A DNA stretch of 64,000 nucleotides, from the NCBI RefSeq assembly GCF_000374805.1, contig NZ_KB895335.1, positions 244,046 through 308,045 on the forward strand. The letters run 5' to 3'. Below are positions 27,864-34,798 of this stretch, one piece after another. The translations under genes and the position numbers were made by a program. Within the stretch, counting starts at the first letter, position 1, and the number at the start of each line of letters is the position of its first letter. This DNA is from Chitiniphilus shinanonensis DSM 23277 (GTDB lineage Bacteria > Pseudomonadota > Gammaproteobacteria > Burkholderiales > Chitinibacteraceae). The notes beneath the pieces were generated by a model that did no database searches, was not told the origin of the DNA, and was given only the letters and a program-made list of their open reading frames with translations.

Positions 27864-28907
27864 TCAATCCACGCGCGGATGCACCGTCACTCGCGCCGCG
27901 CCATCCTCGTCCGCCACCTCGACCCGCACCGGCAGGAAGCGCTCGATCACCATCGCGTTGGTCCGCAGATGCGACGAGGCGCAGGTCGCGGTAAAGCGGC
28001 CGCCACCGGCCAGCGCCAACGGCAACAGCAGTTGATCCGCCAGGTGCTCGCCGACGGCCGCACGGCCGGCGAGGTACTGCCGGGCTTCGCGCGCGGCACG
28101 GTCGGCCACCGCCTCGGCGCTGACGCCGCGTTCGCCGAACGCGGTGAACACTTCGCTCACCTGCTCGTGCACCACCTCGATCAACAGCACGTTGCCGGGG
28201 CCTTCGTCCGGCGGCAGCACGCGCGCTTCGCCGGCCACCTCACCCAGGTGTTGTGTCACGCGCGCCAGTTCGCGCTGGGCGACATGCGCCGGCACCCGCG
28301 CCACCAGCGCCTCGGCCCGCACCTGGCGCAGCGCGCCGCGTTCGGTCAGATCGAGCGGCTGCAATGCCGCGCACGGCGTGACGGAGGCCCGCACCTCGCC
28401 ACCGCCCGCCGGATAGAAGCCGTGGCGCAGCAGCACGAGCTGTTGCTGCACGCCCAGCGTGGCCACCAGCGGCCACCAGGCGCGGATCAGGAAATCGGCT
28501 GGCGGCGCCGCCTGGTTGTGGGTGCCGCCGCTGACCGTCACCGTACTCGGCGCATCGGCGAACCACAGCGCCGGCAGCACCGTCTGCAATACCAGCGTGC
28601 AACTGCCGGCACTGCCGATGGCAAAGCGATAGTCGCCGCCCCGGATCATGCCCGGCACGAAGCTCAGGCGGGTGGAACCCAGCTCGGCGCCCTGCACCGT
28701 CGCGCCGCAGATCGCGGCGGCGGCCTGCACCGCCGTCAGGTGCTGGCGCAGCAGGCCCGGCTTGGCGCGACCGGCGCGGATACGCTCGATGCGGAACGGC
28801 CGGCCGCTGATCGCCGACAGCGTCAGCGCGCTGCGCAACACCTGGCCGCCCCCCTCGCCTTCGGCGCCGTCCAGCGCCAGCCAGTCTTGTTGTTGTGTCG
28901 TTTTCAT
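27864..28907 (-). CDS. rtcA: RNA 3'-terminal phosphate cyclase.
   Basis: [36 protein letters not shown] is a canonical RtcA N-terminus. Confidence 0.85.
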
Positions 28908-28937: not shown

Positions 28938-29732
28938 TCAGTGACTGATCGCCATGCGGTACAGCAGGCGGTCCAGCGCCGCGTCGTCGCCCTCGGGCTT
29001 GTTGAAATCCTGCGGCGCCTGTTCGGTCGCCAGTTCGCGCTCGATGAACGCGTGGATCAGCGGAAAACGCGGGCCATGCTCCGCTTCGCCCGCCGCCATC
29101 TTGATCGCCAGCAGGCGATTGATCTCCGCGCGCAGCGCGTCGTCGGTGACCATCGTCTCGGCCAGTTCGGCGAACCGCATCGGCGGCCGTCCGCGCCCGG
29201 CGTCGATCCAGCGCGCGGCCAGCAACGGCCGCAGCACGTACAGGTACTTCTTCAGGCGCACCGTGTCGCCTTGCAGGTACCCGCGAAAGTTCTTGCGCGC
29301 CATCATCAGGTAATGCCAGCGCCCCTTGCGCTCGGAAAAGAACGCCAGCGCCAACGCGCGCAACGCGGCCGCCGCCTCGTCGTCGGCCCGGTACACCACC
29401 GGCGAATCCAGCCATTCCAGCAAGGTGGGGTTGGAACGGCGCAGCAATTGCAGCGCCTTGCGCAGCTCCCAGCCAGCGATGTCCAGTTCGTCGCTGATCG
29501 GCAGCTCGATCACGTCGCGCTGCGGTTCCACGCGCAGATACCAATCCAGCCGGTGCACGTAGACGAAACGCACGTCGTAGTCGCTGTCCGGCGAGGCGAA
29601 ACCCCAGCCGCGACTGCCCGACTCGCAGGCAAACAGCACCCGCACATCGTGCCGCGCTTCGATCGCGGCCAGTTCATCCATCACCCGCTCGCGCACGACG
29701 GGGTCGATGGGATGGGCGCTCAGTATGGTCAT
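28938..29732 (-). CDS. Pol-beta-superfamily nucleotidyltransferase-domain protein inserted between rtcB and rtcA.
   Basis: RVLFACESGSRGWGFASPDSDYDVRFVY has the hG[GS]...DxD NTase motif. Confidence 0.7.
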   Translation of the reverse strand: MTILSAHPIDPVVRERVMDELAAIEARHDVRVLFACESGSRGWGFASPDSDYDVRFVYVHRLDWYLRVEPQRDVIELPISDELDIAGWELRKALQLLRRSNPTLLEWLDSPVVYRADDEAAAALRALALAFFSERKGRWHYLMMARKNFRGYLQGDTVRLKKYLYVLRPLLAARWIDAGRGRPPMRFAELAETMVTDDALRAEINRLLAIKMAAGEAEHGPRFPLIHAFIERELATEQAPQDFNKPEGDDAALDRLLYRMAISH

Positions 29733-29790: not shown

Positions 29791-31005
<1,215 letters not shown>

Positions 31006-31028
31006 GTTCCTGTTCTCTCTATTGCTTT

Positions 31029-31388
31029 CTATTGCTTGGCCAATCCGGCCAGGGCGCGGCGGCGTTGCTGCCGGCAGCCCAGGCAGCGTACGGCGCTGGA
31101 ATACACGTAACCCTTGGCGGTCTCGTACCACCATTGCTGTTGTTCGGCCGTCCAGACCTGGTGGGCGCCGCAATCGCGACAGGTGAACGCCAGGTCCACG
31201 TAGTAGCCGCGTATCACGAAATCCGGCCAGCCGTAGCTGTTGTACGGCGCCAGTTGCGCCGCATCGACCGTGACCGCGCCCTTGGGGCGGGGCTGGGGCG
31301 GCGGGATGCGTGCCGCGGCCGCCTGATCCCGCTTGAGTTTGCGCTGCGCCATGATGGCGGCGCGTTTTTGTTTTCCGCTTTGCATCAT
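31029..31388 (-). CDS. Small basic protein with a CxxC...CxxC zinc-ribbon, immediately upstream of rtcB.
   Basis: CRDCGAH...CLGC pair. Lys/Arg-rich N-terminus. Confidence 0.5.
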   Translation of the reverse strand: MMQSGKQKRAAIMAQRKLKRDQAAAARIPPPQPRPKGAVTVDAAQLAPYNSYGWPDFVIRGYYVDLAFTCRDCGAHQVWTAEQQQWWYETAKGYVYSSAVRCLGCRQQRRRALAGLAKQ

Positions 31389-31430: not shown

Positions 31431-32570
31431 CTATACCTTCAGTTTCACCAGTCCGTTCAACAACTGGTCCAGACCACCGAACACGGAGATCCGATCGATG
31501 CGTTCGGCCAGGCGCTCCAGCGTTTCCAACTCCTTGAGCCGCAGCGCGGTGGGGTTGTCTTCCATCACCTTGGCGGTGTTCAGCAGCGAACGGGTGGCGC
31601 CGGTTTCCTCGCGGCGGCGGATCACGTTGGCCTGCGCCGCCTTTTCGGCCTCGACCACTTGCGCCAGCAGCGCCTTCATTTCGCCGGGCAGAACGATGTC
31701 CTTCACCCCCAGGCTGGCCACCCGCACGCCGAAACCGGCCAGTCGGGTAGCGACGTGCTGTCCCACCACGTCGTCGATCACCTGTTTGTTTTCCAGCAGT
31801 TCATCGAGCGTGCGGGTGCCCACGGCGGCGCGCAGTCCGAACTGCAACTCGCGGTAAACGTGTTCCAGCGGCTTGGGCAGGCGCGAGAACGCCAGTTCCA
31901 CGTCGTCGAACAACCAGTTGGCCGCCAGGTTGATCCGCAGGCTGACCTTGTCACGGGTGAGGATTTCCTGGCCGGTGATTTCCATCGCCTGTAACCGGGT
32001 ATCCACCAGATCGACCGCCACGTCGCGGTTGAAGCGCCAGTACGCATAGCGCCCCGGCTGCAACAGCGTCACGCGCTGACCGTTCACCCGCAGCACGCCC
32101 ACCTGCCCATCCGGCACCAATACGTTCAGCACCGCGCCCAGGCCGACGATGGCCTTGCCGCGCAACGCCGGTTGCGCGATCCGCGCCAGCAGATCGGCCG
32201 GCACCGTCCAATCCTGCGTCAGATCGATGCGCTCGAAGCGTTGCGGCATCGCAGCCTTCCAGTACATCCGACGCGAACCGGGCGGCACGATCTCGACCAG
32301 GGTGTCGTTCTCGAAGCGCAGGCCGGCTTCGTTGTCGCCCAGATCGAACACGTCGAAGTGCTCGGCCACCACGGCCGGTTCGTACTGGCGCAGGTATTCG
32401 GCCAGCGGGTGTTCGAACAGCGCTTCGGTCAGCGGATAGGTGCAGGCGCTGAAGCGTGGGCGCAGCCCGGCGCGCAGATAGGTGCCGGGGTTCAACACGG
32501 CGACAAAGTCGCCATCGCGCAGCAGCAGCGCGCGTTCGTTCTTACGAACCAGGAATCGTTGCAGCATCAT
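31431..32570 (-). CDS. SPFH/band-7 (slipin-like) protein.
   Basis: Band-7 core plus C-terminal coiled coil (MKALLAQVVEAEKAAQANVIRRREETGATRSLLNTAKV). Confidence 0.8.
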   Translation of the reverse strand: MMLQRFLVRKNERALLLRDGDFVAVLNPGTYLRAGLRPRFSACTYPLTEALFEHPLAEYLRQYEPAVVAEHFDVFDLGDNEAGLRFENDTLVEIVPPGSRRMYWKAAMPQRFERIDLTQDWTVPADLLARIAQPALRGKAIVGLGAVLNVLVPDGQVGVLRVNGQRVTLLQPGRYAYWRFNRDVAVDLVDTRLQAMEITGQEILTRDKVSLRINLAANWLFDDVELAFSRLPKPLEHVYRELQFGLRAAVGTRTLDELLENKQVIDDVVGQHVATRLAGFGVRVASLGVKDIVLPGEMKALLAQVVEAEKAAQANVIRRREETGATRSLLNTAKVMEDNPTALRLKELETLERLAERIDRISVFGGLDQLLNGLVKLKV

Positions 32571-32824
32571 TTTTTCTTTTCCTTTTTTCAGTAGCGCCGT
32601 TGGCGGCGCAAAAGCCGGCGGGCGCGGGTCTGGCCGGGCCGTCGCATGACCAGCCGGGGGCCACTCGCATTGCGCCGGGCTGTCACGCGGACACCGTTGC
32701 CACCAGTGCCGCGCTCAGCGCAGAGCGCCTTGCGATGGGCTGCCGGGTGGCGATACGCCAGCCGGGCCAGACCCGCGGCAGTGTTGCCACCGCGCCGGGT
32801 ACTTCGTTTGCACAACACCGGGAA

Positions 32825-33050
32825 GGTGTTTCGGGCGGGAGTCGAACCCGCTACACACGGCTTTTGGCCGTTGCTCTACCCATGAGCTTCCGAGGGAGCG
32901 ACGTCGGGAATCGAACCCAGACGGGACACCAGTCGTCGCGCTGACTGTGCTTCGTTGCGGCGGTACACGCGGGATCGACCCACGATGCCTGCGTGCCGGT
33001 GCGGTATCTGAACCGCTTACCCCAGGGCGCACACCGTTGCGGCAGTCACC
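32825..33050 (-). ncRNA. Candidate structured leader/ncRNA with a tRNA-like module: YrlA/Y-RNA-like element of the rtc operon.
   Basis: On the minus strand: a D-arm GCTC-ATGGGTA-GAGC, an anticodon-like hairpin ACGG-CCAAAAG-CCGT and a perfect T-arm GCGGG-TTCGACT-CCCGC. Only a 4-bp acceptor pairing and no CCA. Two further T-arm-like hairpins (GGGTTCGATTCCC, GGGTCGATCCC). Lies directly downstream of a sigma54-like promoter and upstream of the SPFH gene. Confidence 0.4.
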
Positions 33051-33060
33051 GATAGGGTTA

Positions 33061-33076
33061 GCGAAAGCCGTGCCAG
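33061..33076 (-). promoter_or_regulatory. Candidate sigma54 (-24/-12) promoter for the rtc operon.
   Basis: Minus-strand sequence cTGGCACggcttTCGCt: GG/GC elements with correct 5-nt spacing, one mismatch in the -12 box. Divergent from rtcR, as in E. coli and Salmonella. Confidence 0.45.
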
Positions 33077-33211
33077 GTGCTTGGCGATAAGCAAAAATCC
33101 ACCAACTCTTTGTTTTTAATTGGTTTTAAATTCAACCGTCGCAGCCCGGCCATATGGCACCCCCGAAAATTCATATATCATCAGATCGTTTTTTATCTTT
33201 TCAGATAACCA

Positions 33212-34798
33212 ATGAAGAAGACCGTGGTCATCGGCTTTGTCGGGACAGTGCTCGATTACGCCGGCAAGGGCGGGCAGCGCTGGGACAAGTGGCGGCCGAG
33301 CGTGGGGCTGTGTCAGCAGGACGATCTGCTGGTGGATCGGCTGGAGCTGCTGCACGACAGCCGCAGCCGGGGCCTGTTCGAACGCCTGCGCCAGGACATC
33401 GCCGCCGTCTCGCCCGGCACCGAGGTGCGCAGCGTGGAGATCAACCTGCGCAACCCCTGGGATTTCGAGGAGGTCTATGGCGCGCTGCACGATTTCGCGC
33501 GCGGCTATGCCTTCGACGCCGACCACGAGGACTACCTGATCCACATCACCACCGGCACCCACGTGGCGCAGATCTGCTGGTTCCTGCTGGCGGAGGCGCG
33601 CTACCTGCCGGCGCGGCTGGTGCAGACTTCGCCGCCGGTACAGCGCCGCGAGGAGGGCGTGGCCGGCAGCTACGCGCTGATCGATCTCGATCTCTCGCGC
33701 TACGACAAGATCGCCACCCGCTTCGCCCGCGAGCAGGCGGAAACGGTGTCGTTCCTCAAATCGGGCATCGCCACGCGCAATGCGCGCTTCAACCGGATGA
33801 TCGAGCAGATCGAGCGGGTGGCGGTGCGCTCGAAGGCGCCGATGCTGCTGTGCGGCCCCACCGGTGCCGGCAAGTCGTTCCTGGCGCGGCGCATCTACGA
33901 ACTGAAGAAGGCACGCCACCAGTTGAACGGGCGCTTTGTCGAGGTCAACTGCGCGACGCTGCGCGGCGACAACGCGATGTCGGCGCTGTTCGGCCATGTG
34001 CGCGGCGCCTTCACCGGTGCGCAGGCCGAGCGCGCGGGCCTGCTGCGCAGCGCCGACGGCGGGCTGCTGTTCCTGGACGAGATCGGCGAACTGGGGCTGG
34101 ACGAGCAGGCGATGCTGCTCAAGGCCATCGAGGAGAAGCGCTTCTTTCCCTTCGGCAGCGACCGCGAGGCGGACAGCGATTTCCAGTTGATCGCGGGCAC
34201 CATGCGCGATCTGGGGCAATGGGTGGCCAGCGGGCGCTTCCGCGAGGACCTGTACGCGCGGATCAACCTGTGGACCTACACCCTGCCGGGGCTGGCCGAG
34301 CGCGCCGAGGATCTCGAACCCAACCTGGAGTTCGAACTGGCGCGTTATGCCCGCGAATACGGCGAACAGGTGCGTTTCAACGCCGAGGCGCGTCACGCCT
34401 ACCTGAAATTCGCCATGTCGCCCGACGCGGCATGGAGCGGCAACTTCCGCGAACTGTCGGCCTCGGTGACGCGGATGGCGACGCTGGCGGAGGCCGGGCG
34501 CATCACCGAGGCGGTGGTCGACGAGGAACTGGCGCGTCTGCGCCAGGGCTGGCGCACCCAGCGCGATTCGCCGTTGCGCGCCCTGATGGGCGAGCGCTTC
34601 GAGCAGCTGGACCTGTTCGACCAGTTGCAACTGGAAAGCGTGGCCGCCGTGTGCCGACAGGCCGCATCGCTATCCGACGCCGGGCGGCGGCTGTTCGGCG
34701 TCTCGCGCCAGGACAAGGCCAGACCCAACGACGCGGATCGGCTGCGCAAGTACCTGGCGCGCTACGACCTGAGCTGGCAGCAGCTGCATTCGTCCTAG
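33212..34798 (+). CDS. rtcR: Sigma54-dependent transcriptional regulator RtcR (CARF sensor domain, AAA+ domain and HTH).
   Basis: N-terminal CARF-like domain (MKKTVVIGFVGTVLDYAG...). Walker A GPTGAGKS and GAFTGA sigma54-contact motif. Confidence 0.9.
   Translation: MKKTVVIGFVGTVLDYAGKGGQRWDKWRPSVGLCQQDDLLVDRLELLHDSRSRGLFERLRQDIAAVSPGTEVRSVEINLRNPWDFEEVYGALHDFARGYAFDADHEDYLIHITTGTHVAQICWFLLAEARYLPARLVQTSPPVQRREEGVAGSYALIDLDLSRYDKIATRFAREQAETVSFLKSGIATRNARFNRMIEQIERVAVRSKAPMLLCGPTGAGKSFLARRIYELKKARHQLNGRFVEVNCATLRGDNAMSALFGHVRGAFTGAQAERAGLLRSADGGLLFLDEIGELGLDEQAMLLKAIEEKRFFPFGSDREADSDFQLIAGTMRDLGQWVASGRFREDLYARINLWTYTLPGLAERAEDLEPNLEFELARYAREYGEQVRFNAEARHAYLKFAMSPDAAWSGNFRELSASVTRMATLAEAGRITEAVVDEELARLRQGWRTQRDSPLRALMGERFEQLDLFDQLQLESVAAVCRQAASLSDAGRRLFGVSRQDKARPNDADRLRKYLARYDLSWQQLHSS

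Follow-up and report, generated by a model that had tools for sequence, protein, structure and literature searches.

A structured, tRNA-like RNA element lies in the 5' leader of an rtc RNA-repair operon on the minus strand of the window analysed here (64,000 nucleotides (nt) of the Chitiniphilus shinanonensis DSM 23277 genome, contig NZ_KB895335.1), and very probably belongs to the b7a-tRNA (for 'band 7-associated') family. This family was predicted by Burroughs and Aravind (Nucleic Acids Res 2016, cited in Wang et al. 2018, bioRxiv 10.1101/312249). As described in the citing article, b7a-tRNA is a predicted non-coding RNA (ncRNA) that strongly resembles tRNA, is found beside a Band-7 gene in RtcB RNA-repair operons, has been proposed to be functionally redundant with YrlA, and was experimentally unvalidated as of 2018. 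The window element adjoins the Band-7 gene of an RtcB operon, resembles a tRNA cloverleaf and is homologous to elements at the same position in other Band-7 loci. By that account the element class has been known since the 2016 prediction, and what is added here is the anatomy of the element and its leader: a tandem reduced unit, a short acceptor stem that is a family trait, an unconstrained anticodon loop, and a covarying leader of ~480 nt. On balance we favour the combined statement that the RNA is a b7a-tRNA-family element and serves as the RNA partner of a Band-7 scaffold.

The central feature is tRNA-like unit 2 (32825..32894, core 32893-32831, minus strand), which lies 261 nt 5' of the Band_7 start in an operon encoding Band_7, zf_Tbcl, RtcB, RlaP and RtcA, and is identified by Rfam tRNA, by a family-specific covariance model (R1) and by covariation. 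Rfam tRNA (RF00005) gives 32893..32831(-) a score of 32.8 bits, its gathering score being 29 (E = 0.005 for the whole window), and tRNA is the sole Rfam family found in the 64-kilobase (kb) window, both at gathering and at E <= 10. R1, built from 75 orthologous elements with the window sequence excluded, scores 32894..32825(-) at 71.6 bits (E = 2.8e-18), its sole significant match in 64 kb. Both scores bear out the near-canonical minus-strand cloverleaf proposed in an initial annotation made from the sequence alone, and most of the anatomy given there can be read directly from the sequence: a 4-base-pair (bp) acceptor stem UCGG/CCGA (32893-32890 with 32834-32831), D arm GCTC/ATGGGTA/GAGC (32887-32873), variable region GTGTA, T arm GCGGG/TTCGACT/CCCGC (32851-32835) and no encoded CCA. 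Positions 8 and 9 are both A. Covering model positions 4-67, the RF00005 match is local and leaves out the outer acceptor pairs, which this unit lacks. The anticodon-type hairpin (32871-32857) requires revision, having been drawn as a 4-bp stem with a 7-nt loop CCAAAAG and C at position 33. Orthologues instead favour a 5-bp stem with a 5-nt loop, ACGGC-CAAAA-GCCGU, as in L028, where ACCGC CAAAA GCGGT shares the CAAAA loop of the window.

Unit 2 recurs in orthologous loci. Confirmed Band-7 loci number 484; we retrieved 80 loci with Band-7 protein orthologues (58-68% identity) for comparison, and in most of them ARAGORN and Rfam tRNA place a tRNA-like element 230-410 nt 5' of the Band-7 gene. 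R1 matches 76/78 Band-7 loci having enough upstream sequence; because most of these belonged to its training set, the independent evidence is a structure-blind MAFFT alignment of 78 elements, in which covariation was measured. The cloverleaf is paired in 87.8% of cells in this alignment, compared with 73% in shuffled alignments and 33-46% in controls that slide the partners by 1-3 columns, and its stems covary, an outcome that the initial annotation had proposed looking for by comparative alignment. The anticodon stem is 96.6% paired with compensatory changes at 5/5 pairs; pairing reaches 99.7% in the T stem, and the D stem hardly varies at all. For the four inner acceptor pairs the figure is 97%, with a GC/CG swap among them (47 versus 25 sequences), and the three outer acceptor pairs are paired in 42% of cells only. 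Since these outer pairs are mostly unformed across the family, the 4-bp acceptor stem is a family trait, not an accident of the Chitiniphilus genome; only Pseudomonas and Burkholderia have a stem of 6-7 bp. In 41/78 elements the anticodon loop has 7 nt, and across the family it ranges from 4 to 8 nt, with one 15-nt outlier; the shorter loops (4-6 nt) include UUCG, GNRA (GCAA, GAAA), C-UUCG-G and CAAAA. Anticodon triplets are not conserved and differ even among close relatives. As judged from these sequences, the D and T arms, which make up the tRNA elbow, and the inner acceptor pairs are under selection, and the anticodon loop is free to vary.

Because unit 2 exceeds the Rfam tRNA gathering score, and because some relatives have, at the corresponding position, ARAGORN-called tRNAs whose anticodons are ordinary, a bona fide or recently decayed tRNA gene that is intergenic by chance has to be weighed. 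We regard this explanation as extremely improbable. ARAGORN finds 0 tRNA genes in the 64-kb window, and unit 2 has 4 acceptor pairs only, a 5-nt CAAAA loop and no CCA. The putative anticodon changes from one close relative to the next and often gives way to a tetraloop, and within the leader no sigma70-like promoter turned up on the minus strand. Position and D and T arms are also kept across two proteobacterial classes with compensatory changes, which argues for selection on a non-decoding RNA and not for decay. The initial annotation had likewise distinguished a tRNA-like element from a working tRNA gene, a distinction supported by the missing ARAGORN call, the short acceptor stem and the unconserved anticodon loop. 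The leader RNA presumably neither decodes nor is aminoacylated.

A reduced tRNA-like unit without an anticodon arm (unit 1; 32898..32939, minus strand) lies 5' of unit 2. Its window version is built from an acceptor-like stem of 6 bp (GCGACG/CGUCGC), a short, GG-containing D-like segment ACUGGUGU, and a conserved T arm CUGGG-UUCGAUU-CCCGA (32920-32904, minus strand; hairpin GGGTTCGATTCCC). Two T-arm motifs (GGUUCGAnUC) occur in nearly every leader at a spacing of 54-83 nt, typically 68-79, and the upstream T arm is directly flanked by a 6-7-bp stem in 62/68 loci versus 23% of shuffled controls. The sequences of this flanking stem are unrelated between loci. The evidence for unit 1 is this shuffled-upstream control, a formal pair count being circular since the sequences were trimmed by complementarity. 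Beta-proteobacterial versions, including that of the window, consist of an acceptor-like stem of 6-7 bp, a short D-like hairpin with GG in its loop (typically UGGU), a few bases of linker and the T arm, with the anticodon arm absent. The Pseudomonas unit 1 is a full cloverleaf that abuts unit 2 without a spacer, its anticodon stem usually capped by a short loop. Judging by these layouts, the entire anticodon arm is dispensable in unit 1. Orthologous examples of the unit are found at L001 2576-2646 and L037 2619-2676, and unit 1 of L024 (2627-2672) gives a sub-threshold match to Rfam mascRNA-menRNA (27 bits versus a gathering score of 42.5). The initial annotation had noted two T-arm-like hairpins besides that of the cloverleaf. 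The first, GGGTTCGATTCCC, is the conserved T arm of unit 1; the second, GGGTCGATCCC (32981-32971), was rejected, as it has a 5-nt loop, forms the tip of the leader hairpin P2 described below and does not resemble a T arm even in Jeongeupia, the closest relative.

A conserved tRNA body whose anticodon loop is a UUCG or GNRA tetraloop, or is deleted altogether, is also what would be expected of an uncleavable decoy. Such tRNA bodies would bind tRNA-targeting toxins (anticodon nucleases and other ribotoxins) while RtcB repairs the real tRNAs. The same idea has been raised in the literature for YrlA, and the RNA is predicted to be induced along with the repair enzymes. We nevertheless consider a decoy quite unlikely here. 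Most anticodon nucleases recognise the anticodon loop itself, and it is this loop that the family fails to keep. The RNA, at one or two copies per mRNA, would moreover face a very large tRNA pool, and a decoy leaves unexplained both the tight linkage to Band-7 and the large conserved structure that flanks the two units.

This flanking structure spans the leader. The 492 nt from promoter to first start codon fold better than 100/100 dinucleotide-preserving shuffles (z = -3.84), and the cloverleaf arms of unit 2 are retained in the minimum-free-energy fold of the whole leader, in agreement with what RNA folding had been proposed to check. The interval 32825-33050 originally assigned to the element proved too short: the structured region continues beyond it, to about 32594. 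An RNAalifold consensus of the window and 16 beta-proteobacterial leaders contains 90 pairs, 55 of them with compensatory changes. The 58 pairs outside both tRNA-like units (two 5' hairpins, a small hairpin and a long extended helix) are 92% paired, and both-sided change is seen in 38/58 of them versus 13-17 in slid controls, for a structure derived from the same alignment that is used to score it. The element is one of a conserved family that occupies the same position 5' of Band-7 genes in beta- and gamma-proteobacteria.

The helices of the leader are individually well conserved. Hairpin P1 (32995..33030, minus strand; apical GCGGU UCAGAU ACCGC at 33016-33001) is followed by a conserved CCGG(U/C)(G/A)C motif; across the family its helix is 96% paired with compensatory changes at 6/9 pairs, and the window version is close to that of Jeongeupia. 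Hairpin P2 (32966..32995, minus strand; tip GGG-UCGAU-CCC at 32981-32971) is 91% paired with compensatory changes at 12/15 pairs. Directly 3' of unit 2, a short hairpin ACACC-UUCCC-GGUGU (32815..32829, minus strand) is kept with compensatory changes, appearing in relatives as CUGCC/GGCAG, UUGCC/GGCAA and CUGUC/GACAG. Alignments also identify a conserved single-stranded motif GAAGUACCCGGCGCGG (family consensus GCAGUACCCGCCGG; 32790..32805, minus strand). The long extended helix spans ~150 nt (32623..32777, minus strand), pairing 32777-32760 with 32639-32623 around a variable apical part; 12/14 consensus pairs form in the window, where the helix is also part of the minimum-free-energy fold, and across the family it is 92% paired with compensatory changes at 12/14 pairs. 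A hairpin specific to the window, GCGCCG-CCAA-CGGCGC (32594..32609, minus strand), lies just 5' of the ribosome-binding site as an insertion relative to orthologues.

A long-range closing helix UGCCG/CGGCA (A2 columns 110-114 with 582-586) was considered and set aside: it is nearly invariant and so offers no covariation, and 3/5 of its pairs are present in the window. We note a nearly invariant motif UAUGCCGCC 5' of unit 1, weaker in the window (GUACCGCC), whose possible partners are CGGCA just before the ribosome-binding site or GGCGGCA within the region of the long helix, with no covariation to choose between them (window 32961-32965 with 32613-32617; A2 columns 110-116, 417-423 and 582-586). 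No Rfam family other than tRNA exceeds its gathering score in 20 orthologous loci (Rfam 15); when the window leader and two orthologous ones were scanned permissively, nothing but sub-threshold matches appeared besides tRNA. A 105-amino-acid open reading frame (ORF) that overlaps the element (32715..33032, minus strand) was judged spurious, as relatives show indels of lengths that are not multiples of three and compensatory base-pair changes.

Upstream of the leader, a sigma54-type promoter TGGCACGGCTTTCGC (GG-N10-GC; 33061..33075, minus strand) can be read from the sequence, and its position puts the estimated transcription start near 33050 on the minus strand. The same promoter form, TGGCAC-N5-TCGC, is present 456-574 nt 5' of the Band-7 start in 50/81 leaders, counting the window. 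No intrinsic terminator was found on the minus strand within the leader or between the tRNA-like RNA and the Band-7 gene. Given that the leader also has no sigma70-like promoter, the element is expected to be transcribed as part of the operon 5' leader. The minus-strand order is sigma54 promoter, ~480-nt leader, Band-7, zf_Tbcl, RtcB, RlaP and RtcA, in line with the earlier placement of the element in the transcript of the RtcR/sigma54 promoter of an rtc operon. The first gene encodes a Band-7/SPFH ('slipin') protein of 379 amino acids (31431..32570, minus strand; Pfam Band_7 2.8e-27) and is followed on the same strand by genes for a treble-clef zinc-finger protein of 119 amino acids (zf_Tbcl; 31029..31388; Pfam PF13451 9.1e-14), the RtcB RNA ligase (29791..31173 as the coordinates of the listed ORF; Pfam RtcB 1.5e-130), the RlaP nucleotidyltransferase (28938..29732; Pfam PF10127 3e-100) and, as the last operon gene, the RtcA RNA 3'-phosphate cyclase (27864..28907; Pfam RTC 1.2e-79). 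The true start of RtcB is probably near 31010, judged against the 404-amino-acid Jeongeupia protein and the Jeongeupia gene layout. RtcR, with a CARF-like RtcR domain and a sigma54 activator domain, is encoded divergently (33212..34798, plus strand; Pfam RtcR 3.2e-88, Sigma54_activat 1.5e-48), and a convergent, unrelated gene of the ornithine cyclodeaminase family adjoins the downstream end of the operon.

The protein encoded next to the RNA is 100% identical to a Chitiniphilus shinanonensis protein and has 'slipin family' relatives in the thousands, including in Pseudomonas (P. aeruginosa among them), Burkholderia, Chromobacterium and many other beta-proteobacteria. No transmembrane segment is predicted in it (maximum Kyte-Doolittle hydropathy 1.54). 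Its AlphaFold2 model (predicted local distance difference test (pLDDT) score 82) combines beta domains (beta-repeats) at the N terminus with an SPFH domain and a long helix, and Foldseek searches with this model return stomatin, HflK/C and prohibitin rings as well as major vault protein, the last over about 410 columns that include the N-terminal part.

Lineage variation shows which parts of the locus stay together. A minimal locus in Chitinimonas lacunae (L082, 1818-4059) consists of a long leader, Band_7 and zf_Tbcl only, with a degenerate unit 2 (23 bits) and none of RtcR, RtcB, RlaP and RtcA near the Band_7 locus, which suggests that leader, Band-7 and zinc finger form the core module. Eight Comamonadaceae-type loci (L048, L054, L061, L062, L067, L068, L073 and L079) keep the leader, and no sigma54 promoter motif was found beside it. 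Because the leader is kept in Chitinimonas and in these loci, the RNA tracks Band-7 and not RtcR or RtcB. The same eight loci carry same-strand arrays of canonical tRNA genes of mixed isotypes (2-3 genes in L048 and L054, 4-9 in the other six; for example L079 801-1875, and L061 1145-1705 and 1890-2483). In 6/8 loci (not L054 or L062) the array is followed by a conserved gene for an HNH endonuclease of ~190 amino acids, confirmed by Pfam in L061 and L073, and then by the leader and Band-7. This layout looks like spare tRNAs coupled to RNA repair.

How the RNA might act is a more tentative matter, and the mechanism taken alone, an RNA partner of a Band-7 scaffold working through tRNA elbows, appears plausible to us without being the expected outcome. 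The leader RNA would be made only when RtcR fires. Either as the 5' untranslated region (UTR) or as a piece processed from it, the RNA would be the partner of a soluble, vault-protein-like, oligomeric Band-7 scaffold, which the zinc-finger protein may join, and its two tRNA elbows would either mimic or recruit the surfaces by which repair enzymes bind tRNA, as proposed for YrlA with Ro60/Rsr. A broader version, to our minds somewhat unlikely, treats the b7a-tRNA as perhaps one module of a larger RNA, such that the ~480-nt leader would be the RNA subunit of a vault-like Band-7 particle organising RtcB, RlaP and RtcA. The leader has two tRNA elbows, one of them without an anticodon arm, and a helix of ~150 nt, a combination for which we found no description. 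Tetraloops freely replace the anticodon loops, which for this larger RNA would make the elbows, and not the anticodons, the working surfaces.

Several observations weigh against an RNA partner of Band-7. P. entomophila L031 (2545-3003) keeps the promoter, leader helices and Band-7 with plain hairpins in place of the tRNA-like units; Chromobacterium L083 (2210-2291) keeps the same features with the units reduced to little beyond two T arms; and Chitinimonas keeps leader and Band-7 with degraded units. With the units lost or degraded in lineages that retain leader and Band-7, the tRNA-like modules are not indispensable everywhere. The equation with b7a-tRNA rests on a secondary description (Wang et al. 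2018), the leader structure is scored, as noted above, on its own alignment, and our literature searches returned no expression, processing or binding data on this RNA beyond that secondary mention. Papers on P. aeruginosa RtcB and SPFH proteins place the Band-7 gene (PA4582, PaFlo8) in the rtc locus with the RNA unmentioned. Finally, since no terminator separates the RNA from the Band-7 gene, the data are just as consistent with a role exclusively in cis.

Under a purely cis-acting explanation, the modules would be processing or stability determinants of the mRNA (entry sites for RNase P, RNase Z or RNase E, or 5' protection), or else a feedback device in which leader fragments ending in 2',3'-cyclic phosphate feed the CARF domain of RtcR until RtcB religates them. 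The location of the element within a 5' UTR that runs without a terminator into the Band-7 gene fits this explanation, as does the conservation of leader length and helices right to the ribosome-binding site. In Pseudomonas the acceptor stems of both units are 6-7 bp long and the units adjoin each other as in a tRNA precursor, and published work has shown that Salmonella RtcR is activated by tRNA fragments and that M. smegmatis YrlA is cut by RNase P. However, the 4 acceptor pairs of most beta-proteobacterial unit 2 elements make a poor RNase P substrate, the leader is kept in loci without RtcR and the sigma54 promoter, and the anticodon loops that a nuclease would cut are unconserved and often stable tetraloops. 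We judge a role confined to cis to be unlikely, and continue to favour a Band-7 partner RNA of the b7a-tRNA family.

RtcB/RtcA operons are widespread, and their bacterial substrates and cofactors are poorly defined. The b7a-tRNA was predicted ten years ago, according to the description cited, as the Band-7 counterpart of the pair formed by Ro60 and Y RNA, and no experimental test of it was found in the searchable literature. It may be the large conserved leader fold that is the actual unit of function. Should the RNA assemble with the vault-protein-like Band-7 protein, bacterial RNA repair would be linked to how vault and Ro ribonucleoproteins originated; should it be no more than a leader, it is an ordinary representative of a class already known.

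Among known systems, YrlA, encoded in rsr-yrlBA-rtcBA operons, was the comparison drawn in the initial annotation. Both RNAs mimic tRNA, conserve the D and T arms and lack a CCA end, both are co-transcribed with RtcB and RtcA under RtcR/sigma54, and both are proposed scaffold-protein cofactors in RNA repair. YrlA is, however, a circularly permuted mimic, consisting of T arm, closed acceptor hairpin and D arm without an anticodon loop, and its 'anticodon stem' runs on into a long terminal stem that binds Ro60. In the window element the arms follow the canonical order acceptor-D-anticodon-T-acceptor, a hairpin of anticodon type is present, the acceptor stem is open and 4 bp long, and the partner gene is Band-7 in place of Rsr/Ro60. 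Rfam YrlA (RF02553) gives no match in 32400-33300 even at E <= 10. The model was present in the scanned library, as it gives a sub-threshold match in the Pseudomonas locus L001 (2619-2670; 34.9 bits versus a gathering score of 69). That match, which we note as a curiosity and not as evidence of membership, runs from the unit 1 T arm through the junction to the unit 2 D arm, so that the tandem locally reproduces the T-then-D order of YrlA.

Membership of the YrlA/Y RNA family was accordingly rejected on the missing RF02553 match, the canonical, not permuted, order and the absence of rsr beside the operon. A YrlA-type Y RNA that works with Ro60/Rsr encoded elsewhere is very improbable: a tRNA mimic within an rtc operon and the sub-threshold Pseudomonas match would suit it, and against it stand the arm order, the failure to match YrlA in the window at E <= 10, the association with Band-7, and the finding that no TROVE/Rsr protein is encoded among the operon genes or the genes flanking them. 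What survives of the YrlA likeness is the published hypothesis, as relayed in the 2018 article, of a functional counterpart. The lack of Rsr had struck the initial annotation as unusual; gene 1 of the operon is Band-7, the element is present in 76/78 Band-7 loci, and b7a-tRNA is described for just such operons, so operons of this type normally lack Rsr.

Other systems share single features with the locus. mascRNA and similar RNAs are likewise tRNA-like folds within a longer transcript, but mascRNAs are eukaryotic and are set free by RNase P and RNase Z, and no mascRNA match was found in the window. The eukaryotic vault, composed of major vault protein and vault RNA, differs in that major vault protein has about 800-900 amino acids, compared with 379 for the Band-7 protein, and in that vault RNAs do not fold as tRNA-like cloverleaves. 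We draw this parallel as an analogy; what the two systems have in common are the beta repeats, SPFH 'shoulder' and long helix of the predicted fold, and a small structured RNA genetically tied to the protein. The b7a-tRNA, in its published description, is like the window element in being a tRNA-like ncRNA that lies next to a Band-7 gene in an RtcB operon and requires no Rsr.

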